From: Candidatus Latescibacterota bacterium
GTDB lineage: Bacteria > Latescibacterota > UBA2968 > GCA-2709665
Reading direction: 5' to 3'
DNA length: 64,000 bases
Assembly (NCBI GenBank): GCA_965208835.1
Contig: OZ242358.1
Span: 1,344,001-1,408,000, forward strand
Positions 34,054 through 45,495 of this stretch are shown in pieces. Position numbers and translations under genes: made by a program. Numbering within the stretch: position 1 is the stretch's first letter; every line of letters begins with the position of its first letter. The notes under the pieces are model-generated. The model was not told the origin of the DNA. It was given only the letters and a program-made list of their open reading frames with translations, and did no database searches.

Positions 34054-34509
34054 TCACCCTGATCGTCCGTCCTGAACCGGGATCCCCTTCGCCTCAGCGA
34101 ATGCCGTAACTGCCTCGATGATCTGTGGTTTGACGGTCTGATTGTCGTTATAGCTCATTGCGCTGAAGTCGATCTTTATGTTTCTGCCCTTGGCGAGTCG
34201 GAATTCAAGTTTCATCATCTGAACATCAATTTCTGAGATCGATTCCCAGGGAACTCTCCGACCTCTGTATAAACTCCTATCAATTGCCAGATTTGCATCG
34301 GAAACGGTGATTATGTATTTGTTTATGCGGTGCAAGAGACCCATAAAGGGCAGGGTGATTAGTCCCAACACGAGTTGAAGAGCGCCCAGAAACGGATTAT
34401 CCCCTATGTTCGCGATTCCGAGGAAGATCAATATCACGGCATACGTAACCCACATTATCCGAAACAAACGTGTCACCGGTACAGTAAGGTCAAACGTCCG
34501 CTCTTCCAT
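34054..34509 (-). CDS. hypothetical membrane protein (2 TM + PH-like domain), 151 aa
   Basis: ATG 34509 after GGAGG; paralog of 36810-37265. Confidence 0.75.
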   Translation of the reverse strand: MEERTFDLTVPVTRLFRIMWVTYAVILIFLGIANIGDNPFLGALQLVLGLITLPFMGLLHRINKYIITVSDANLAIDRSLYRGRRVPWESISEIDVQMMKLEFRLAKGRNIKIDFSAMSYNDNQTVKPQIIEAVTAFAEAKGIPVQDGRSG

Positions 34510-34810
34510 GGATTCGTCCTCCTTCTTTGTACGAACAGTGGCGCATTGATCACGTACGTCCAGACGTAACACGATGCCGGCCCGCTGGATGACCAGAGCT
34601 CAGGCTGGCTCAGCCCGGTCACATCGGCTGCAATCTACAGTCTAATATAAGCCCGCAGGTTACAAAGGGAGAACCAAAGATTCAGCGGCTGCCGGGCTCA
34701 AATGGCCCGTGTTTGACGAGTTGTCTTTCTCTGGCATCTCTTCGTGCCTATATTGTGGGACCGTAAGGCGATGCCCAGGAACAGACCACGAACTTTATGA
34801 AAAGACACCC

Positions 34811-35723: not shown

Positions 35724-36482
35724 ATGCGTCTGCTAATCATCGACGGCTGGACCCTGGAAGGTAACCGGACTCATGCGCATGCCGGGGTGGAGGAGCAAGC
35801 GCATGTCTTCGAGTCGCTCGTTCGGGAAAGCCAGCCCGATGCGGAAGTTCGGATTGTCCACACGTATGGCGACGTCGGACCGTTAGACCTGGACTTCGGC
35901 AGGTACGATGGCGCGGTCTGGACCGGCGGGGGCGGCAACATCTACGAAGACAATCCATTCAACAGGCGTCAGCTGGCGTTGGGCGAGCGGGTACTCGCGG
36001 ATGTACCCCACGTCTGGGGAAGCTGCTGGGGGTTTCAGGTCATTACGACCCTTTGCGGCGGGGAGGTGGCGCCGGCGCGCCGTCCGGAAATCGGTATCGC
36101 AAAAGACATCACGGTACGATCGCTGGACTCTTCCAAGACCCTGTATCGCGGCAAGCCGCACACATTCGATGCGCCGGCCCATCACTTCGACGAGACCGCC
36201 CGGCTGCCTCGGGAATTCGAGATTGTCGCAGAAAATGCGACAACGCTGCAGGCCGTCGTATCAAAAAACCGGCGCATCACCTGCACGCAATACCATCCCG
36301 AACTGCCCTACGACTACATCGGAAAGCTGATGCGGCACTGGGCGCCGAATTACGCGTCGATGTTCGCGGAGGATGACTTCCGGAATCTGCTGGCGAGGTT
36401 GAAGAAGAAAGAGAGCGAAGAAAAGAGCTTCAGGAAGATCGAGTTCAGAAACTGGTTGGAAGTCGTGAGGCGAGGCGGGTAG
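35724..36482 (+). CDS. type 1 glutamine amidotransferase-like protein
   Basis: WTGG, GSCWGFQ nucleophile elbow, QYHPE. Confidence 0.85.
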   Translation: MRLLIIDGWTLEGNRTHAHAGVEEQAHVFESLVRESQPDAEVRIVHTYGDVGPLDLDFGRYDGAVWTGGGGNIYEDNPFNRRQLALGERVLADVPHVWGSCWGFQVITTLCGGEVAPARRPEIGIAKDITVRSLDSSKTLYRGKPHTFDAPAHHFDETARLPREFEIVAENATTLQAVVSKNRRITCTQYHPELPYDYIGKLMRHWAPNYASMFAEDDFRNLLARLKKKESEEKSFRKIEFRNWLEVVRRGG

Positions 36483-36534
36483 GACATTTGAAGTGGAAAC
36501 CTGAAAGTGACCTCTCACGCGGCCCTTCAAAAGC

Positions 36535-36656
36535 GGGTAGACGTAAGCCGCTAGACGGGAGAGATTGTCTGCCTCGTGAGGTTTCTTCTCGTGCCGGAGG
36601 CGAGATGGAATAGCATACCGGGCAAGGATTTCATCTACCCTCTTCCCTCTCACCGC
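36535..36656 (+). repeat. dispersed repeat family B, copy 4
   Basis: GAGAGATTGTCTGCCTCGTGAGGTTTCTTCTCGTGCCGGAGGCGAG; followed by REP-like palindrome as in copy 3. Confidence 0.8.
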
Positions 36657-36809
36657 CTTTTGGCGACCGGCCGGTCGCCCGCCTGTCACGCAGACCTCTC
36701 CCCCCAGCCCCCTATCCTTCGAGGAGAGGGGGAAGTAAGCCAGGAGTCACCTTGCCTATACCGTGACCCATCACCGTTTCCCCTTCAGTCTGGAATGGGG
36801 TCGGTCCGG

Positions 36810-37265
36810 TCACCCTGAACGGCCGTCCCGTATAGGAATCCCATTCGCCTCCGCGAACTCGTTCAGCGCCGCGATGATCTGGGGCTTTACAATCTGGTTG
36901 TCAGTATAGCTCAAATTAAAGTTCCAGTTCACATTTTTCCCCTCCTTGAGCGCTATATCCAATTTCAACAGTTGTATTTCTATATCAGAAATAGACGCCC
37001 AGGGAATTCTTCGTGGCTTGACTAAAGCTCTTTGCAGCGTCAGGTGCGAATCGTCAAACGCAATCACATATCGGTTCATGCGCGGCATAAGAACAACGGA
37101 GAGCATGAAAAACACACCAAAGGCTATCTGTAAGACGCCCAGTACATCGTCACCCCTCTCAAAGCTGAAGACACCACTGGCAACCTGAATCGCGCCAAAA
37201 CCGCTCTAACCCGCTAATAATAAGCGGGATACGGGAGCGGAGAGATCGAAGGTTTGTTCTTTCAT
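36810..37265 (-). pseudogene. paralog of 34054-34509 interrupted by in-frame TAG at codon 20
   Basis: MKEQTFDLSAPVSRLLLAG*SG... vs MEERTFDLTVPVTRLFRIMW; both spans 456 bp; shared WxSISxI, SYxDNQxVKPQII, GIPxxDGRSG. Confidence 0.8.
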
Positions 37266-37479
37266 GGACGTGATTTCCCCTATGTGTCGGTTTGTCGGTC
37301 GACGTTATTCTCTTCAAGGTTACTTTGGAAATAAGGGCGGTGAGGTGCATGAAGTCAACGACGAATTTAAGTAACCTACGTTGAGAGATCTGGACGAGTG
37401 TCGAGTGCTCCATTCAAATGGACACAATGAAAACACGGTATAACGCGGTTTTCAAAATAGGGCCAAAAAGGAGAGGACA

Positions 37480-37680
37480 ATGAAAGACTCAATCAGGTTT
37501 CCGAAGGGTTGGGACGAGGACCGTGTCCGACGCCTTCTGGACCATTACGAATCACAGACAGAAGACGAAGGAGTGGCGGAAGATGAAGCCGTATTGAAAG
37601 ACGAGAGCCAAACGCTGATGGCAATACCCAAGGCTCTGGTTCCTTCGGTACGAGCGCTTCTCTCCGAACACGCAGAGTGA
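37480..37680 (+). CDS. small antitoxin-like conserved hypothetical protein
   Basis: AGGAGAGG RBS; FPKGWDEDRVRRLLDHYESQTEDEGVAEDEA, xPKALVPSVRALL. Confidence 0.7.
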   Translation: MKDSIRFPKGWDEDRVRRLLDHYESQTEDEGVAEDEAVLKDESQTLMAIPKALVPSVRALLSEHAE

Positions 37681-38254
37681 ATTCGCTGCCTTTCGTTTTC
37701 ACTTGATCTACATACACGCGAAGACGTGGGACAATATTCGCCTGATCTTGTTCAATTCCACGAGAGAGTTAGGCGTCCAGCGGCGTCATGCGATTCAGTT
37801 TTTCCAAGGCAATCTGAAATTCACGCCCTCCTCTTTAAACTCCTGCCGACCAATCCCATCCTCCGGTACGATACCAGATCCGCCCTTTCCGCACCACGCT
37901 TTCGGATTTCAGATTATTGATACCAGGCCCACGTGTGCTGGTGTCTTACAAACGACCGTTGGAGTGGCCACGGCTGCCCGTCCCGTGCCCAACCTCGAGT
38001 GTTGGGGACCAGTGTCGTTTGCAGATTTCCCTTGACTCCAAGCGGATCTTGGCTTTCCTTCCTTATCTGGTAAACGAACACCGGTGGTATGGTTTACAGT
38101 TGCCATTGGTTATTGCGATTCAGCGATTTTATGACGTCCCGTTCACTCGACCTCGCTGCGCGATGACGGAAGAACAATGACCGAGATTCTTCCGGAATCC
38201 TGCGCCTGACTTATGAGGTAGGGGAAACGGGTTTTTTGTCCACGTCGGGATGAT

Positions 38255-39901
38255 ATGCAGTCCATTGCAGAGTATCTCAGCGGCAAGACGCTGTTTGTAA
38301 CCGGCGCGACGGGGTTTCTGGCGAAGGGATTCGTGGAGAAGATCCTGTTTTCCGCGCCCGAGGTGGCGCGGATCTATCTCCTGATTCGGCCGCGGTCGCG
38401 TTCCAACGGCCAGCTTGTCTCCGACGCGGAACGTCTGGAGACCGAAATCCTTCAGTCCCGCGCGTTCGAAAGGCTGCGTGAGAGGTGGGGTGGGGCGTTT
38501 TCCGCCGTGATGGCGGATAAGCTCGTCGCGGTCGCCGGCGATCTGACCGAAGACGGGCTGGGGATTGCCGCCGATCAGCGCGAGCGTCTTGTCGAGGAAG
38601 TCGATTTTGTCGTCAATTTCGCCGGGACGGTTGTATTCGACGAGCCCATCGACAGCGCCCTCGAGCAGAATGCAATGGGGGCCGCCCGCGTCGTCACCTT
38701 CGCGAAGGCCTGCCGGAAAGCCGCGCTCGTTCATGTATCAACCGCGTACGTGAGCGGAAAGCGCACCGGCCGGATACCCGAAGCGCCGTTTCCCCAGGAC
38801 CGGAGCGTTTCGGACCTCATCAACGGAAGCGCCGCCGGCTTCGACCTGCAGGGCGAGATCGACGCCATCCGGGCTTTCACCCTGGAAGTCGAGGAGGCAT
38901 CCAGAAAGCCCGACCTCGAAGCGGCGTTCCTGAAGCAACTCCGGCGGCAGGACCGTGGAAAACGCGTTACCGACTACCGGAAGGCCCACCAGGTTGAAGC
39001 CCTTCGCCAGTGCTGGATCCGGAAGCAGCTGGTGGACGAAGGGATGCGGCGTGCGAGGCGCCACGGCTGGAACGACAGCTACACGCTCACCAAGGCGATG
39101 GGTGAGCAGCTGATCGCAAAGTCTCGGGGAAACCTTCCAACGGCCATCGTCCGGCCGTCAATCGTGGAGAGCAGCCTCGAGGACCCGGTACCCGGCTGGG
39201 TGGAGGATTTGAAAGTCGCCGACCCGCTGATCGTCCACTACGGCAAGGGCCGTCTGTCGAATTTTCCGATCGATCCCGGAATTGTACTGGATATCATACC
39301 CGTCGACGTCCTGAACAACGCCGTTGCGGCGGTTCTTCCGCAAGTACACGGGTCGGAGGAGATGAAGGTCTACCATGTGGCCTCGGGCTCGCAGAATCCG
39401 GTTCTGGCGAGTGAAATGGTCGATCTTGTTTACGGGTATTTCAAATCTTCGCCCATGCAGGACCGAAGCGGGCGACCCATCGACGTCAGGCCCTGGCAGT
39501 TCATCAGCCAGCGTCGGTTCAATTGTCTGGTCGCACTGAAATACAAGCTTCCGCTTGGCCTGTTGAAAGCGGCCGTGGACTATCTGCCCGCACAATGGGT
39601 TTCCCGTTACAGGCGCCGGGTAACCGGCATGGAGGCCGTTCTGGTGCGGCTTGAGTCCCTGGTCGATACCTATTGTGGGTACACCCACCTCGATTGCGAG
39701 TTCGAAACGGAGAATACGCGCCGGCTGTACCTGGCGCTGAATCCCGAAGATCAGAAGGTGTTCAACTTCGACGTGACGCGCATCAACTGGCCGGAGTACA
39801 TCCAGGAGATCCACATCCCGGGATTGAAACACCATGTATTGAAAGAGGGGGACGGGGCGGTTTCCGTGGTGGCCGCCGAAGCTGACGGGCCGCACAATTG
39901 A
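38255..39901 (+). CDS. fatty acyl-CoA reductase (alcohol-forming, FAR/male-sterility family)
   Basis: TGATGFLAK, HVSTAYV, YTLTK, IVRPSIV, DIIPVD, C-terminal Sterile domain FNFDVTRINWPEYIQEIHIPGL. Confidence 0.92.
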   Translation: MQSIAEYLSGKTLFVTGATGFLAKGFVEKILFSAPEVARIYLLIRPRSRSNGQLVSDAERLETEILQSRAFERLRERWGGAFSAVMADKLVAVAGDLTEDGLGIAADQRERLVEEVDFVVNFAGTVVFDEPIDSALEQNAMGAARVVTFAKACRKAALVHVSTAYVSGKRTGRIPEAPFPQDRSVSDLINGSAAGFDLQGEIDAIRAFTLEVEEASRKPDLEAAFLKQLRRQDRGKRVTDYRKAHQVEALRQCWIRKQLVDEGMRRARRHGWNDSYTLTKAMGEQLIAKSRGNLPTAIVRPSIVESSLEDPVPGWVEDLKVADPLIVHYGKGRLSNFPIDPGIVLDIIPVDVLNNAVAAVLPQVHGSEEMKVYHVASGSQNPVLASEMVDLVYGYFKSSPMQDRSGRPIDVRPWQFISQRRFNCLVALKYKLPLGLLKAAVDYLPAQWVSRYRRRVTGMEAVLVRLESLVDTYCGYTHLDCEFETENTRRLYLALNPEDQKVFNFDVTRINWPEYIQEIHIPGLKHHVLKEGDGAVSVVAAEADGPHN

Positions 39902-40014
39902 GGTTTGGGGTTCAGGACCGCCATCACTCGTGAGTTTACCCGACGGGGATGCGAACGGGGCGAACCCGAACCAGGCATAGGCGGTCTTTCAGCCTCTTTC
40001 ACGACAGGCGATTT

Positions 40015-41952
40015 ATGGATCGAAACAAGAAAATCCCCATGCACCAGCTGCTGTTGCGGGATCCGGACGGACTGCATGCAGCATATGATCAGGCTGCCTC
40101 GGAGTTGATCGAAGCGGTCCGGCCCGAAGGCTATTTCGAGGGCTGGACGGCGGGAGAGCTGACGTGGCCGTCCGGCGGCGCGGATCAGATCGGCCTGGGA
40201 GGCCTGCTTAAGCGTTCGCGAATCGTGGAGGCGATCTATAATGGCGTTCCCGCACTGCGGGAGCGGCGTCTGAAGGAGGCGCACGACCACTTCGTCGAAT
40301 TGACGCCGGCCTACCACGAGGGGAACCGGATCTATTTGCGGTTGCGGGATGAGTTCGTCGGCAGCGGCGCCGGAACGGGCCTGGATTTCCTGAAGCTATA
40401 CCAGTCGCTGTACGTTGAGGCGCTTGCAAAAGGAGATGATTTCTCGCCCGACCTGGCCGAAACAACATTGGCACAGGCCGGGATTTCACGGGTACCGCTG
40501 TCCCACGCCAGAGCCGTTGCGGAAGCGCTGCCGAGTGTGGCGACGGACGATTCGCGCTGGCAGGTCGAATACGCCTGCGCGGTGAACGGCGAAACATGGA
40601 ATGGATCCCTCCGGGAACTTCTGCAAGACGTGGCGCAGCGGACGTTGCACCTGATTGCCGCCGGAGAGCTTCTGGCCACGCGCTACAACACGTACAATAA
40701 CCTGGGCTGGTTCGGCAGTTCGGTGTGGAAGGTGGTCGCGGATGCCGATGTGCGGCTGTACCAGATGGAGGTTTCGGATCCGTCGCGCCTGGCGGCCCTG
40801 AAGACGGACGTTGATCTGGGCAGGAGCATGCTCGTGGAGTTTCTCGCGGCACACCGGGAGAATCCCGCCAGGCTGAGGCCGGAGAACTACTGGTACGGGC
40901 AGCCGTACAGCTATCTCACGCGGGACATGATCGACCTGAGCGTCCGGATCGTGGACGGTGTGAATTCTGCGGTACGAGAACGGGAGGGGCATTCGGAATT
41001 GGCGCTCCCTCCGCTGCTGGCCGGTGCCCATACGGGTCGATTCCTGGAATATGCTCACGTCGGCGTAACGGAGGAACTGACGTCCTTCCAGCGCAAAATC
41101 CGGATGTTGCGGTGGGCGAGGCGCTGCTGGCGGGTCGGGCGGCGCCGGAAACGCATCGCGGAGGAGGACCTCACGCCGTCAATGCGGCATGAGCGCGCGT
41201 GGGAGGTCTGGCTGGACTGGTCCCGCGACACGATGAATGCCTTCGGCATCCGGCTGGAAGTGACCATAGCACCCATGTTCCGGACGCTTGTCAGAGAGAT
41301 GGACCTTTCCGCCGGTGGCCAGAGGATCCTGTTTCTGCCTTCCCACCAGAGCATGCTGGAACACTTCGTTGTGTTTTCGGTTTTCAATGACCCGTTGTTT
41401 CTGGACGCGATGGGGTGGGAACGTTCCCGTCCGGTAGTTCAACTTGCCCGGACGGGACTTGCGAAGTCGACGTCGGTGAAGATCGGATCGCGCGAGATCA
41501 GCATCTTCGGCATGTCACCGGACAAATTCGACAGGATGTTCGAGACCGTGGACGGCTTTATCACCAGGGACAGCGTCGATATCTCATCCCATACGATTCC
41601 ACGCATCCTGCAGGAGATGGAACGCCGTCCCGGTGTGATCTATCCGATGGGAACAACGGCTTCGTTCGACGTACAGCTGTTCCCGCTCCAGCACGCGCTG
41701 TTCGCGAAGCTCCCCCAGGACGTGGTGATGATTCCCATCGTCTTTCGGGGCAGCCACGCGCTATGGCCGAAGTGCCCGGCGCGCAATCTGAATATCAATC
41801 CGGGTGTGATCGAGGCGGTGATCCTGCCCCCTATGCCGGGCGAGACCACGTTGCTGCCCCGACGCCGGTCGCTGCGAATCCAGCTGGAAGCCGCCAATCT
41901 GCTTCAGGCGGTGCATGTTTCCAATTTGCTGAATCCGGAGCCGTCCCGGTGA
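40015..41952 (+). CDS. atypical glycerolipid acyltransferase (PlsC/GNPAT-like C-terminal domain, unknown N-terminal domain)
   Basis: ILFLPSHQSMLE (HxxxxD-like), GFITR, VIYPMGT (FPEGT-like), MIPIVFRG; start uncertain (39949/40015/40039). Confidence 0.65.
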   Translation: MDRNKKIPMHQLLLRDPDGLHAAYDQAASELIEAVRPEGYFEGWTAGELTWPSGGADQIGLGGLLKRSRIVEAIYNGVPALRERRLKEAHDHFVELTPAYHEGNRIYLRLRDEFVGSGAGTGLDFLKLYQSLYVEALAKGDDFSPDLAETTLAQAGISRVPLSHARAVAEALPSVATDDSRWQVEYACAVNGETWNGSLRELLQDVAQRTLHLIAAGELLATRYNTYNNLGWFGSSVWKVVADADVRLYQMEVSDPSRLAALKTDVDLGRSMLVEFLAAHRENPARLRPENYWYGQPYSYLTRDMIDLSVRIVDGVNSAVREREGHSELALPPLLAGAHTGRFLEYAHVGVTEELTSFQRKIRMLRWARRCWRVGRRRKRIAEEDLTPSMRHERAWEVWLDWSRDTMNAFGIRLEVTIAPMFRTLVREMDLSAGGQRILFLPSHQSMLEHFVVFSVFNDPLFLDAMGWERSRPVVQLARTGLAKSTSVKIGSREISIFGMSPDKFDRMFETVDGFITRDSVDISSHTIPRILQEMERRPGVIYPMGTTASFDVQLFPLQHALFAKLPQDVVMIPIVFRGSHALWPKCPARNLNINPGVIEAVILPPMPGETTLLPRRRSLRIQLEAANLLQAVHVSNLLNPEPSR

Positions 41953-42038
41953 TGCGTCGGGACGTCCCCAACAGCCGTCATTGAATTTCGCTGTCGAATA
42001 CATGTGGTCCGGCCGCTTGCGGTCGTCTGGAGTCCGTT

Positions 42039-43886
42039 ATGCCTGACTGGGGAGCAGCAACGGTTGCCGTAGCGGTTGTCCTGGTGTTTGCGCACCTGTC
42101 GAACCGGAGGCGATCCGGAAACGAACCGGATGATTTCTTCGATCATTCGGAAGGAGAACGGTTCCCCCACAAGTGGGGGTACACGGATACGCGCTTCGAG
42201 TTTGTAGACGATCGGACGGTGAAGGTAACCGGGAGCAGGTACCCGATTTCGGGGTATCGGATGCCGTTTCTGCTGGACTTTGTGGAGGACGTGTTGGGGA
42301 TTACAATCCGACGGGAAGACTCGTACGCGGAACGCGAGGACGTCGATGCGCCCGAGCCGAATCTCGACGCCGCGTTCGGCAACGCGCTGAAAGAACGGTT
42401 TGGAGACGGGCAGGTTTCATTCGATTCCAAAACCAGGCTCGTGCACAGCCACGGGCAGCTGAGCGTTGAAGAAGTGTACCGGGTGATGTACGGGGATTCA
42501 CTGTCCAGGCTGGTCGATCTGGTGTTCTATCCGGAGGAAGAGGCCGATGTAAAGGCCATGATCGACCTGGCTAACGAGCACGACGTCTGCCTGGTGCCCT
42601 ACGGCGGAGGGACGAATGTGAGCGGGGCGCTGGCGTGTCCGCCCGACGAGCGGCGCACGATTGTGTCCGTGGATATGCGGCGGATGGACCGGGTTCTCTG
42701 GATCGACGAGGGGAATCTGCAGGCGTGCGTCGAAGCGGGCATTTCCGGAAAGTCGCTGGAGCGGGTATTGGGGGAGCGGGGGTATACGTCGGGGCACGAT
42801 CCCGACAGCGTGGAACTCTCCACGATGGGCGGGTGGATCTCAACCAACGCGAGCGGGATGAAGAAGAACCGTTACGGTAATATAGAGGATATTGTACTCG
42901 AGGCGACGCTGGTAACGCCCACCGGGGAGATTGCGACCCGCGTGGTGACGCCGAGGAATTCCACGGGCGTTCAGCCCAGGGGCCTGCTGTTCGGCAGCGA
43001 AGGCAATTTCGGTATTATCACTACGGCGGTGATCAAGATTCATCCGATCCCGGAGGCGCGCAGGTACGGAGCACTTGTGTTTCCGGCATTCGAGAAGGGC
43101 GTCGCGTACCTGAAGGCGCTACGGCAGACCGGGATGCTGCCCGCGAGCATCCGCCTGGTCAACAATAATGAGTTCCGGTTCGGCCAGGCCCTGAAACCGG
43201 CGCCGAAATTCCTGAAGGGCGTCAAGGAACGGCTTCAGAAGTTCGTCCTGTTGAAGGTGCTGGGTTTCGATCCGATGAAGATGGCGGCATGCACCATCGT
43301 GATGGAGGGCACGAACGACGAGGTCGGCCAGCAGGAACGCACGATCTTCAGCCTGGCGAAGGAGTACGGCGCCAAGAGCGCGGGCGCGAGCAACGGCAAG
43401 CGAGGATACTCGCTTACGTTCGGCATCGCCTATATACGAGACTTTCTGAACCAGTACGGCATTCTGGGCGAAACCTTTGAGACGTCGGTGCCGTGGGACC
43501 GGATTCACCAGGTGTGCGATGCGGTTTCCGGCGAACTGGTCGCCCAGGCCGGCAGACACGACGTCCCGGGCAAGCCCTATCTGTCGTACAGGGTAACGCA
43601 GACCTATCATACCGGCGTCTGTATCTATTTCACCATGGGCATCTACGGCAAGGGCCTGGAACAGCCCGGCCGGACGTTTCACGCGATCGAACACCAGCTG
43701 CGGCAGGTTATCCTGGACAACGGGGGGTCGCTGTCGCACCACCACGGCGTTGGCAAGGTGAGAAGGGATTTCCTCCCGCAGATCCAGACCGATAACAGCA
43801 TGCAGGTTATGCGCCAGGCGAAAAACGCGATGGATCCGAACAACATCTTCGGGATCCGGAATGGCGTGTTTGGCAATTCGGGCTAA
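42039..43886 (+). CDS. agpS: alkyl-dihydroxyacetonephosphate synthase (AGPS/ADPS), FAD-dependent
   Basis: KWGYTD, PYGGGTNVSGAL, GHDPDSVELSTMGGWISTNASGMKKNRYGNIED, GSEGNFGII, GETFETSVPW, RVTQTY, SLSHHHGVGK. Confidence 0.92.
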   Translation: MPDWGAATVAVAVVLVFAHLSNRRRSGNEPDDFFDHSEGERFPHKWGYTDTRFEFVDDRTVKVTGSRYPISGYRMPFLLDFVEDVLGITIRREDSYAEREDVDAPEPNLDAAFGNALKERFGDGQVSFDSKTRLVHSHGQLSVEEVYRVMYGDSLSRLVDLVFYPEEEADVKAMIDLANEHDVCLVPYGGGTNVSGALACPPDERRTIVSVDMRRMDRVLWIDEGNLQACVEAGISGKSLERVLGERGYTSGHDPDSVELSTMGGWISTNASGMKKNRYGNIEDIVLEATLVTPTGEIATRVVTPRNSTGVQPRGLLFGSEGNFGIITTAVIKIHPIPEARRYGALVFPAFEKGVAYLKALRQTGMLPASIRLVNNNEFRFGQALKPAPKFLKGVKERLQKFVLLKVLGFDPMKMAACTIVMEGTNDEVGQQERTIFSLAKEYGAKSAGASNGKRGYSLTFGIAYIRDFLNQYGILGETFETSVPWDRIHQVCDAVSGELVAQAGRHDVPGKPYLSYRVTQTYHTGVCIYFTMGIYGKGLEQPGRTFHAIEHQLRQVILDNGGSLSHHHGVGKVRRDFLPQIQTDNSMQVMRQAKNAMDPNNIFGIRNGVFGNSG

Positions 43887-43900
43887 TCTGTTGTTCTCGC

Positions 43901-43934
43901 GACGTACGGGCGACGCATGCGTCGCCCGTACGTC
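43901..43934. repeat. perfect 34 bp palindrome (REP-like)
   Basis: GACGTACGGGCGACGCA|TGCGTCGCCCGTACGTC between AGPS and SDR. Confidence 0.85.
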
Positions 43935-43952
43935 TGTAGATCGGGTTTCCTA

Positions 43953-44762
43953 ATGTTCAACGGAAAGATCGTCGCGATAACCGGCGCTTCATCGGGCCTT
44001 GGGGCAACACTGGCGCTGGCGTTCGCGGATGCGGGCGCGGACGTTGCGCTGTTCGCCCTGGACGAGGGGGTACAGGATACCGCGGAAGCGTGTCGAGAGC
44101 GGGGCAGCCGCGCCATTACGGCCACGGGCGACGTGGGAAAACCCGATGACTGCGAGGCATGGATCGACGCGGCGGTTTCCGAGTTCGGGGCCGTGGACTA
44201 CCTGGTAGCCTGCGCAGGGATCAGCATGTGGGCGCGGTTTGACGAGGTGGAGGACGTGGCGATTTTCCGCAAGTTGATGGAAACGAACTACCTGGGCATT
44301 GTACACTGCGTGTATTATGCGCTCCCCCATCTGAAGGCGCGTGACGGGATGGTGGTGGCGATTTCTTCCATCCAGGGAAAGATCGGCGTACCCCTGCATA
44401 CAGGGTACGTGGCGTCCAAGCACGCGGTGCAGGGATTCTTCGAGTCTCTGCGGACGGAGTTGCTGGACACCGGCGTGGACGTGCTGACGGTACTGCCCCA
44501 CTGGCTGCGGGGCACGAATCTGCGCAAAGCGGCCTTCGGCAGGGACGGCGGTTCTCTTGGCGGGTCCAGCCGCAAGCACAGCAAAGAGTCCATTTCTCTG
44601 GACGACGCGAGCGAGGCCATCATCGAAGCGATGAAGAAACGAAAACGCGAGTTGATCATTCCGTTCAAGCTCCGATTCCTGCCCTGGCTGCATCTGATCA
44701 ATCCTAAAATTGTCGAATACCTGGTCACGCGCGGGGTGTCGAAGCAGGAGAAGGGGGAGTAG
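43953..44762 (+). CDS. SDR oxidoreductase, DHRS7/DHRS7B-like (candidate acyl/alkyl-DHAP reductase)
   Basis: TGASSGLG, METNYLG, VAISSIQGKIGVPLHTGYVASKHAVQGFFESLRTEL. Confidence 0.85.
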   Translation: MFNGKIVAITGASSGLGATLALAFADAGADVALFALDEGVQDTAEACRERGSRAITATGDVGKPDDCEAWIDAAVSEFGAVDYLVACAGISMWARFDEVEDVAIFRKLMETNYLGIVHCVYYALPHLKARDGMVVAISSIQGKIGVPLHTGYVASKHAVQGFFESLRTELLDTGVDVLTVLPHWLRGTNLRKAAFGRDGGSLGGSSRKHSKESISLDDASEAIIEAMKKRKRELIIPFKLRFLPWLHLINPKIVEYLVTRGVSKQEKGE

Positions 44763-44805: not shown

Positions 44806-45495
44806 TCAGAAGAAGACGCCGTCCAGGTCCACGTGTTGTTCAATGAGGCCGGGCAGGCATCCGGTGTCTCCGGCGTCCACGTCCACGCCGGGATCGTAGG
44901 GCACGGTGCCCAGGGAGCGGACGCCGGACAGTCGGGAAATCACTTCCGGGCTGGTGCGGGCGGCACGCGGATCTCCGGTGCCGGTGGTGTTGTAGACGAC
45001 GCCGATGACCTCCTGATTGCGTCTGTCCGCCGCTTCGAGCGTCAGCATCGTGTGGTTGATCGTGCCCAGCGCGGCGCGGGCGACCACCAGCAGCGGCAGG
45101 TCCAGGCGGCGGGCAAGGTCCGCGACCAGGAAGTCGTCCCGGATGGGTACCAGCAGGCCGCCCACACCCTCCACCAGGACGATATCGTGAAGGCGTGTCA
45201 AGCGGCTGTAGGCATCGTCGATGGGTTCCAGCGGAATCTGGCGGCCTTCCAGTTCGGCCGCTACGTTGGGCGACAACGGCGCTTCGAGGCGGACGGGATT
45301 GACGAGTTCGAGAGCATCGGTGACGCCGGCTGCCTCTGACAGAAGCCGCGCGTCGGCCGTTCCGCCCGAGGAGACGGGCTTGAAGACGCCCACGTCGACG
45401 CCGCGTCCCCGCAATAATGCCGCGATCCCGGCGGTAACGGTTGTTTTGCCCGCGCCGGTGTCCGTGGCGGTAACGAAGACTCCCCTGAATCTCAT
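44806..45495 (-). CDS. bioD: dethiobiotin synthase
   Basis: TATDTGAGKT, FKPVSSG, VEGVGG, LGTINH. Confidence 0.95.
   Translation of the reverse strand: MRFRGVFVTATDTGAGKTTVTAGIAALLRGRGVDVGVFKPVSSGGTADARLLSEAAGVTDALELVNPVRLEAPLSPNVAAELEGRQIPLEPIDDAYSRLTRLHDIVLVEGVGGLLVPIRDDFLVADLARRLDLPLLVVARAALGTINHTMLTLEAADRRNQEVIGVVYNTTGTGDPRAARTSPEVISRLSGVRSLGTVPYDPGVDVDAGDTGCLPGLIEQHVDLDGVFF

Follow-up and report, generated by a model that had tools for sequence, protein, structure and literature searches.

Non-isoprenoid alkyl glycerol ethers occur widely in sediments, soils and sponges, but only a few bacterial producers and routes have been established. Here we analysed a 64,000-nucleotide (nt) stretch of the genome of a Candidatus Latescibacterota bacterium (contig OZ242358.1, positions 1,344,001 to 1,408,000; hereafter the window), in which four consecutive genes, g1 to g4, probably form an operon for the ether-lipid route that centres on alkyldihydroxyacetonephosphate synthase (AGPS). 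A comparable system is the Myxococcus xanthus operon MXAN_1676-1675-1674, which according to the accessible part of a preprint encodes an AGPS ~42% identical to the human enzyme, a fusion of fatty acyl reductase (FAR) and GNPAT called FARAT, and an NAD-dependent epimerase/dehydratase-type protein; deletion of the AGPS gene blocks the AGPS ether-lipid route (bioRxiv 10.1101/2025.10.10.681575, PMC13012113). The same part of that preprint counts 73 bacterial genomes with FAR, GNPAT, AGPS and PEDS1, 61 of them from Myxococcota, in a survey whose GNPAT query was the PTHR12563 signature. It also treats the ElbD route as one without an AGPS candidate, finds AGPS phylogenetically uninformative and proposes a transfer from Myxococcota to early eukaryotes. 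For Latescibacterota, the accessible text of a Black Sea study reports Agps homologues in 67 and ElbD homologues in 50 of 92 metagenome-assembled genomes (MAGs) (PMC11868695). In the accessible text of a sponge study, MAGs of Latescibacterota, Poribacteria and Acidobacteriota have elbD and agps matches, Latescibacterota are said to have had no link to ether lipids so far, and PlsA/PlsR and Ger are described as reductive conversion of an existing ester lipid (bioRxiv 10.64898/2026.06.23.733905). Bacteria are thus already known to use the AGPS route, and Latescibacterota to carry AGPS; set beside the Myxococcus operon and the Agps reports, the suggestion of an initial annotation of this DNA that the operon was of an unknown kind is overstated.

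The initial annotation had placed four consecutive plus-strand genes at 38255-44762, coding for a FAR-family reductase, an acyltransferase-like protein, an AGPS-like flavoprotein and a short-chain dehydrogenase/reductase (SDR). Open reading frames (ORFs) were found at exactly these coordinates, with spacers of 47, 86 and 30 nt between g1 and g2, g2 and g3, and g3 and g4, respectively (DHAP, dihydroxyacetone phosphate; aa, amino acids):

38255-39901, plus strand, g1, FAR, ORF of 548 aa
39949-41952, plus strand, g2, 667 aa, family without a name, proposed DHAP acyltransferase; likely start 40015
42039-43886, plus strand, g3, AGPS, ORF of 615 aa
43917-44762, plus strand, g4, classical SDR, 281 aa, proposed 1-alkyl-DHAP reductase; likely start 43953

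The true starts of g2 and g4 are likely M23 (40015) and M13 (43953), as homologues start there, and the ATG at 43917 is disfavoured for g4 because it lies in the middle of a perfect palindrome.

The gene set and order fit the self-contained alkyl-glycerol ether module that had been proposed, and we consider it probable that the four genes are one operon making 1-O-alkyl-sn-glycerol-3-phosphate, from which alkyl (plasmanyl) ether lipids are built, via the AGPS route. In this pathway g1 would reduce an activated fatty acid to the fatty alcohol, as its family membership suggests, and g2 would acylate DHAP to 1-acyl-DHAP. The AGPS encoded by g3 would then replace the acyl group with the fatty alcohol and so create the ether bond, a step with strong homology support in which the catalytic Tyr and the HHH loop are kept. 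The sn-2 keto group of the resulting 1-alkyl-DHAP would be reduced by g4, and the single PlsC of the genome would add the sn-2 acyl chain to give plasmanic acid. The g2 step is the weakest of these; the case for it comes from fold and motif, from the location of g2 between FAR and AGPS, from its joint occurrence with AGPS and from the lack of another candidate, and taken by itself we put it only modestly above an even chance.

By family, g3 is a genuine AGPS (EC 2.5.1.26), and its exchange activity is predicted. Pfam searches returned FAD_binding_4 (3.1e-38) and FAD-oxidase_C (6.2e-36), and the protein matched guinea-pig AGPS (4bby) at 6.1e-151 and 507 bits, residues 45-608 aligning with residues 95-656 at ~43% identity (242 of 566 columns, counted by hand on the HMMER match line). 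The alignment begins at g3 residue 45 and chain residue 95, well ahead of the FAD domain, so that the AGPS-specific N-terminal extension is kept. Dictyostelium AGPS (2uuu) followed with 3.5e-84 and 287 bits. The best non-AGPS flavoprotein, a putative oxidoreductase, reached 2.2e-25 and 92 bits, ~415 bits under AGPS, and a grouping with glycolate or D-lactate oxidases, which had been set as a check in advance, did not occur. The NCBIfam GlcD match of g3, at 159 bits, is far under its cut-off of 568. The AGPS motif strings quoted in the initial annotation are present in the translation, and two sites are invariant among 16 relatives:

43626-43628, plus strand, Y530 of AGPS (in CIYF), aligned with the Tyr that is Phe in mutant entry 4bca
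43737-43745, plus strand, AGPS loop H567-H568-H569, identical in the guinea-pig enzyme (HMMER alignment)

We take the catalytic roles of Y530 and the HHH loop to be those described in the AGPS structure papers. Among 8000 scored proteins, 4124 were relatives of g3 at E 1e-50 or better; the named ones among the 120 relatives listed were bacterial MAG records or function-only JGI names, and most had no name. The JGI name on close relatives is alkyldihydroxyacetonephosphate synthase.

Some variation within the AGPS family was also observed. In the genus of the window, AGPS starts with a hydrophobic stretch, AATVAVAVVLVFA, followed by RRR (42039-42110, residues 1-24), which could be a membrane anchor; distant relatives align only from about residue 24-31. 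In the metagenomic protein P0075 (1060 aa), aminotransferase domains (PF00155, PF01212, PF01053) are combined with an AGPS that has 69% identity to g3; either a true fusion or an error of gene calling could explain it. One in-frame stop was seen in the AGPS match of three genomes of the phylum (G086:C1:1122398-1124209, TGA; G096:C1:766024-767841, TGA; G119:C104:12794-14608, TAA), for which a pseudogene, a sequencing error or recoding are possible explanations.

The fatty alcohol would be supplied by g1, which by its domain content is an alcohol-forming FAR. It carries NAD_binding_4 (4.7e-64, residues 15-356) followed by Sterile (2.2e-15, residues 453-531), and matches a solved plant FAR (7eoz) at 1.4e-91 and 311 bits in two stretches (residues 4-185 and 257-533). 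The FAR module of an ElbD-like protein from another Latescibacterota genome (G001) shares 39% identity with g1 over 534 aa (1e-126, 392 bits). The Sterile domain was found in none of 14 control genomes, and g1 is the only strong one among 12 NAD_binding_4 matches in its own genome.

Judged by its domain and motifs, g4 is a classical SDR. Pfam adh_short matched at 1.4e-44 and NCBIfam PRK06181 at 285 bits, over its cut-off of 215; the glycine motif T22-G-x3-G-x-G29 is present, and the tetrad N124, S151, Y164 and K168 is invariant in 17 sequences. The closest solved SDRs were 3-hydroxybutyrate dehydrogenase and 11-beta-HSD1 (~1e-22). The string VAISSIQGK, which had been likened to DHRS7B, is present in the translation, and an Atlas search with g4 returned bacterial SDR clusters alone and no DHRS7B lead. 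We propose g4 as the alkyl-DHAP reductase because an SDR like it lies 3' of AGPS in most related loci and the reduction is the only redox step after AGPS.

The linkage was examined in species-representative genomes, where a scan for AGPS gave at least 511 AGPS-encoding stretches among 600 candidates; the best 80 were analysed as loci, with phylum labels taken from record titles. The closest loci (89-94% identity) were MAGs titled Candidatus Latescibacterota or Gemmatimonadota, and the more distant ones among the best 80 came from Poribacteria, Acidobacteriota, Planctomycetota, Neomarinimicrobiota, Gammaproteobacteria and one Trueperaceae. A g4-like SDR stands directly 3' of AGPS on the same strand in 71 of the 80 loci; three loci were cut and six had room but no SDR. 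FAR and g2 precede AGPS, giving the four-gene order, in 26 of the 80; 18 were cut within 4 kb and 36 had room but neither gene. Linkage is thus conserved, most widely for the AGPS-SDR pair; in all 26 loci with the full order, as in the window, FAR and the acyltransferase are separate ORFs. In a FastTree of 81 AGPS sequences (a quick tree, its midpoint root for drawing only), the four-gene state was clustered and needed at least five changes, and it was missing from a nine-row clade labelled Planctomycetota, Neomarinimicrobiota and Acidobacteriota.

The remaining gene, g2, had been called acyltransferase-like and set at the GNPAT step. A predicted AGPAT-type fold and an H-x4-E motif speak for an acyltransferase; the GNPAT homology failed every sequence test, and g2 is outside the GNPAT family by all such criteria. 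Searches returned no Pfam family even at E 10 and none in NCBIfam, and neither the single sequence (phmmer) nor a profile of 16 sequences matched a PDB chain. The g2 profile, run against 1.84 billion representative proteins, gave 60 matches at E 0.001 or better, seven of them near full length (1e-135 or better) and the remainder fragments. Because none exceeded 665 aa, and no acyltransferase-length or fused protein was among them, this set contains no fused form of g2, and no kinship with PlsB, PlsC, GPAT, GNPAT or FAR-acyltransferase fusions is detectable in it. None of four family representatives that were looked up carries a name. The long frames around g2 in some genomes (927-1042 aa) contain no Pfam domain in the extra part and were taken as chance frames of GC-rich DNA. 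In an Atlas search, the unnamed cluster of g2 itself scored 0.88 and PF01553 clusters 0.84, which we treat as leads only.

An AlphaFold2 model of g2 built from the alignment (predicted local distance difference test score, pLDDT, 79; predicted template modelling score 0.83) has an N-terminal helical domain of ~350 residues (~30-375) and a C-terminal alpha/beta domain (378-667). Foldseek ranked PlsC first (E 1.7e-3) and a plant GPAT next. With VIA-align, residues 378-667 were superposed on residues 2-247 of PlsC (5kym_A) with Z 14.6 and a root-mean-square deviation of 3.7 over 230 of 241 residues, and the predicted fold also has the N-terminal pair of helices seen in PlsC. Next came three plastid GPATs (Z 8.3-8.9), 7zkq_T (8.2) and PatA (~6.5), all above unrelated helical proteins. 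By entry title, 10 of the top 11 rows were glycerolipid acyltransferases (PlsC, GPAT, PatA); the remaining row, 7zkq_T, is presumably tafazzin. The C-terminal domain is thus predicted to have the PlsC/GPAT (AGPAT-superfamily) fold. The N-terminal domain folded alone reached pLDDT 82, and its best match among 48,161 chains was a designed coiled-coil barrel with Z 9.8; no fold was assigned, since this value is under the meaningful level for helical bundles. Two motifs were located in the C-terminal domain:

41344-41361, plus strand, g2 motif I, H466-Q-S-M-L-E471 (H-x4-E), from the alignment
41641-41658, plus strand, g2 motif III-like, Y565-P-M-G-T-T570, invariant or near-invariant in 16 relatives

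H466 is invariant and residue 471 is acidic in all 16 aligned sequences (Glu in seven, the window and six others; Asp in nine), and a motif IV-like stretch of the type VVIIPIAFRG is near-invariant. When g2 was compared with the acyltransferase domain of an ElbD-like protein by BLASTP, motif I fell on NHASHLD (E 1.1) and motif III on FPEGTR (E 0.02), both weak matches. By motif and predicted fold g2 is a candidate acyltransferase, a likeness that is invisible to sequence libraries.

The genome itself offers no substitute for g2. It is a single contig of 5.18 Mb, 97.8% complete, in which no ElbD-like or FAR-acyltransferase fusion protein was found and Pfam Acyltransferase had one match, a 252-aa frame (a PlsC-like ORF of 241 aa); for these reasons g2 is the sole candidate for DHAP acylation. 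Co-occurrence was surveyed in 168 genomes of the phylum with an AGPS threshold of E 1e-100 or better. Results showed g2 in 132 genomes, AGPS in 124, both in 123 and neither in 35, so that all AGPS carriers except one (G153, 78% complete) also have g2; the genomes are kin, and the counts describe co-distribution rather than a statistical test. The module is present in 123 of 131 genomes of the four families (f1-f4) of the window's class. In families f1 and f2, which belong to the window's order, g2 and AGPS are adjacent, and in family f4 they lie megabases apart, both still kept. A Trueperaceae-labelled genome has g2 together with the whole operon. Two genomes of the phylum (G043, G156) carry a divergent AGPS (47% identity), which adjoins g2 in G043.

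A different supplier was seen in other genomes. In three f4 genomes (G001, G002, G005) and the Acidobacteriota-labelled G003, the sole Sterile-domain match lies in an open frame of 1408-1458 aa. Pfam assigned FAR, AMP-binding and Acyltransferase domains to the G001 protein and the same plus a carrier-protein domain to that of G003, which is the ElbD architecture. In G001 (locus L095, 699-7149) the ElbD-like gene is followed on the same strand by genes for a prolipoprotein diacylglyceryl transferase (Lgt) and an Old-Yellow-Enzyme-type flavin oxidoreductase.

Several points weigh against the assignment of the operon to alkyl ether lipid synthesis and, above all, against the role of g2 in it. The operon is known here from its genes alone. 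No sequence or profile search found significant similarity of g2 to known acyltransferases; hhalign against a three-sequence alignment (the genome's own PlsC and two ElbD-like acyltransferase domains) gave a probability of 12% and E 0.0024 over 67 columns of the same FPEGTR region. The clade of the window has Glu at position 471, where the family motif has Asp. Nine genomes, 82-99% complete (G013, G042, G044, G066, G079, G154, G155, G157, G158), have g2 and no AGPS match at the survey threshold; their g2 homologue is full length, and some are 96% and 99% complete. Conversely, g2 was found in none of six searched AGPS-SDR genomes labelled Acidobacteriota, Planctomycetota, Poribacteria (two), Neomarinimicrobiota and Gammaproteobacteria, and AGPS therefore needs no g2 in general. 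The acceptor of g2 (DHAP or glycerol-3-phosphate) and its donor (acyl-coenzyme A or acyl carrier protein) lie beyond what a sequence can tell. The desaturase family PF10520 (PEDS1/CarF) had no match in the window's genome or in any of the 168 genomes of the phylum, in a search for which the control genomes were likewise empty and the sensitivity is unproven; on this result alkyl rather than alkenyl (plasmalogen) lipids are expected, provisionally.

In the strongest of the alternatives, the AGPS route is real and g2 acylates another acceptor, such as sn-2 of 1-alkyl-glycerol-3-phosphate, or remodels lipids, while acyl-DHAP comes from an unrecognised enzyme. The top structural match, PlsC, is an sn-2 lysophosphatidate acyltransferase, the motif III-like stretch reads PMGTT and not PEGTR, the nine genomes keep g2 with no AGPS match, and five other phylum labels have the AGPS-SDR pair with no g2. 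However, the genome has a PlsC already and no further Pfam Acyltransferase, ElbD or FAR-acyltransferase fusion that could deliver acyl-DHAP, and g2 stands between FAR and AGPS in the 26 four-gene loci and accompanies AGPS in 123 of 124 carriers in the phylum. We regard another acceptor as unlikely, and acylation of DHAP as the preferred role of g2.

Much less probable is a catalytically dead g2 serving as a membrane scaffold or substrate-channelling partner of AGPS and FAR. Glu in place of Asp in motif I, the lack of a Pfam match to g2, the large extra helical domain, a generic bundle with its best Z of 9.8 to a designed coiled coil, and the extreme divergence from all acyltransferases would suit such a protein; the invariant H466, the acidic residue in 16 of 16 sequences and the near-invariant motif III- and IV-like stretches are instead the pattern of a working active site. 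In E. coli PlsB a change from Asp to Glu is reported to retain activity.

We consider it equally improbable that the products are neutral or signalling lipids derived from fatty alcohol (free alkylglycerols, wax-like esters or alkyl-DHAP-derived metabolites) rather than membrane phospholipids. Genes for wax ester synthesis likewise pair a FAR with an acyltransferase, and no head-group or CDP-alcohol gene is annotated within the operon. AGPS and a keto-reductase, however, have no role in wax ester synthesis, the predicted fold of g2 is AGPAT and not WS/DGAT, alkyl-glycerol-3-phosphate can feed the ordinary PlsC/CDP-diacylglycerol route, and presence in nearly all f1-f4 genomes suits a core membrane trait. 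Recent transfer of the cluster from a eukaryote, for example an animal host, is scarcely credible: AGPS and FAR are best known from eukaryotes and the Sterile domain is missing from the control genomes, but this AGPS is far from the guinea-pig enzyme in identity and has thousands of bacterial relatives, operon GC (0.60-0.61) is like that of the surroundings (0.57-0.64), g2 has no relatives, eukaryotic or other, outside its own narrow family, g1 is closest to a bacterial ElbD-like FAR module, and the arrangement is common to whole families of the phylum.

The description of the operon as a complete eukaryote-type set was overstated, given a g2 that is no GNPAT homologue, an AGPS at ~43% identity and a g1 nearer to the bacterial ElbD-like FAR module (392 bits) than to the solved plant FAR (311 bits). 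Its supposed bearing on the origin of the eukaryotic pathway also falls away. AGPS of Acidobacteriota- and Planctomycetota-labelled loci scored 561 and 556 bits against guinea-pig AGPS, above the 507 bits of the window, and nothing marks the window's lineage as donor to, or recipient from, eukaryotes. Since other bacterial AGPS are at least as close to the animal enzyme as this one, and the published AGPS phylogeny is uninformative, the operon alone says nothing on that origin.

A wider proposal would be that g2 founds a new DHAP acyltransferase family, in which a helical bundle joined to a very divergent PlsC-like domain stands in for GNPAT without being its orthologue, that the AGPS-SDR pair identifies the long-missing alkyl-DHAP reductase of bacteria, and that Latescibacterota are regular makers of 1-O-alkylglycerols. 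We advance it tentatively, at slightly less than an even chance. The interest of the locus lies mainly in g2 as a candidate DHAP acyltransferase family, with no Pfam or NCBIfam model, and in the AGPS-SDR pair, in which a classical SDR following AGPS in genomes with several phylum labels is a candidate alkyl-DHAP reductase. The oxygen-independent part of the AGPS route can also be tested on this operon, as a compact cassette of four genes. Published screens that used GNPAT PTHR12563, or ElbD and Agps queries only, would under-count such genomes; a PTHR12563-based screen would miss g2 because g2 would not satisfy the GNPAT signature. If g2 is indeed a DHAP acyltransferase family, a whole bacterial class would escape surveys that rely on GNPAT homology to score the aerobic ether-lipid pathway as "complete".

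The surroundings of the operon were also inspected. A convergent bioD-like gene (44806-45495, minus strand) lies 44 nt past the g4 stop and closes the unit, with bioA behind it. On the 5' side, ~1.1 kb have no convincing gene (roughly 37116-38254), followed by small ORFs, a glutamine amidotransferase-like gene and a PhzF-like gene; the GC minimum of the window lies just 5' of the operon (36001-38000, 0.534 vs ~0.60). A scan for promoters and terminators gave counts not above those of shuffled sequence (2 vs 2.4 and 7 vs 8.4). Two small ORFs flanking the PhzF-like and amidotransferase-like genes (34054-34572 and 36810-37115, both on the minus strand) are very alike over their C-terminal ~95 residues, share the motif ...WxSISxIxxQxxKLxxxLxxGxNxxxxFxxxSYxDNQxVKPQIIxAxxxFAEAxGIPxxDGRSG (read from the translations) and matched no family in a Pfam search. 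The palindrome mentioned above lies in the spacer between g3 and the likely start of g4:

43901-43934, no strand, perfect palindrome of 34 nt between the stop codon of g3 and the probable start of g4; 17-nt arms, 100% complementary, no loop

Folded as RNA it reaches -35.6 kcal/mol (z -5.2), without a U-tract after it. The palindrome occurs once in the 5.18-Mb genome and is missing from the AGPS-SDR spacer of 10 related loci. In three close relatives this spacer is longer (378-650 nt, from the AGPS end to the tblastn match) and contains a common hairpin with 19-nt arms, TTTTACGCCCTTTTTCTTT / AAAGAAAAAGGGCCAAAAA (L001 9917-9960; L008 9857-9900; L009 9929-9972), which suggests a small inserted repeat element at the same spot.

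In the accessible texts of the literature on bacterial ether lipids, supplements excluded, no four-gene order, split FAR, SDR partner or g2-like protein is described, and the split operon layout and the g2 family appear undescribed. Compared with the anaerobic PlsA/PlsR and Ger routes, which also give bacterial sn-1 ether lipids, the enzymes here are unrelated, and Pfam found none of their domains in the operon. With PlsC and plastid GPAT, g2 shares the predicted C-terminal fold and the H-x4-acidic motif, but it has no PF01553 match, carries the extra helical domain of ~350 residues in front, reads PMGTT at motif III and has DHAP as its proposed acceptor. The ElbB-E cluster is linked to the window through ElbD (FAR, AMP-binding, carrier protein, acyltransferase), as g1 shares 39% of its residues with an ElbD-like FAR module and the ElbD-like genomes, from sister Latescibacterota and an Acidobacteriota-labelled record, also have the AGPS-SDR pair; the window's genome, in contrast, has no ElbD-like protein, and any resemblance of g2 to the acyltransferase domain of ElbD goes no further than motifs.

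With the animal peroxisomal pathway of FAR1, GNPAT, AGPS and a reductase (PexRAP/DHRS7B, Ayr1 in yeast), the operon shares the same four proposed chemical steps, an AGPS that is homologous over its full length with the HHH loop and catalytic Tyr kept, and a FAR with the same two Pfam domains. It differs in the AGPS identity of ~43%, in a g2 that is not GNPAT by sequence, in having no organelle and in the clustering of its genes. The Myxococcus operon is likewise an AGPS-centred bacterial operon that combines FAR activity, acyltransferase activity and a nucleotide-dependent reductase-type protein. Where Myxococcus has FARAT, the window has one gene for FAR and another for the acyltransferase. 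By sequence the latter is no homologue of GNPAT/PF01553; the reductase belongs to the classical rather than the extended SDRs, the host phylum differs, and CarF/PEDS1 had no match in the window's genome or phylum in a search that had no positive control. The picture that emerges is one of a conserved AGPS-SDR core whose suppliers of fatty alcohol and acyl-DHAP are interchangeable: Myxococcus and most eukaryotes use a FAR-acyltransferase fusion, other genomes ElbD-like proteins, and the window's genome a separate FAR plus g2.

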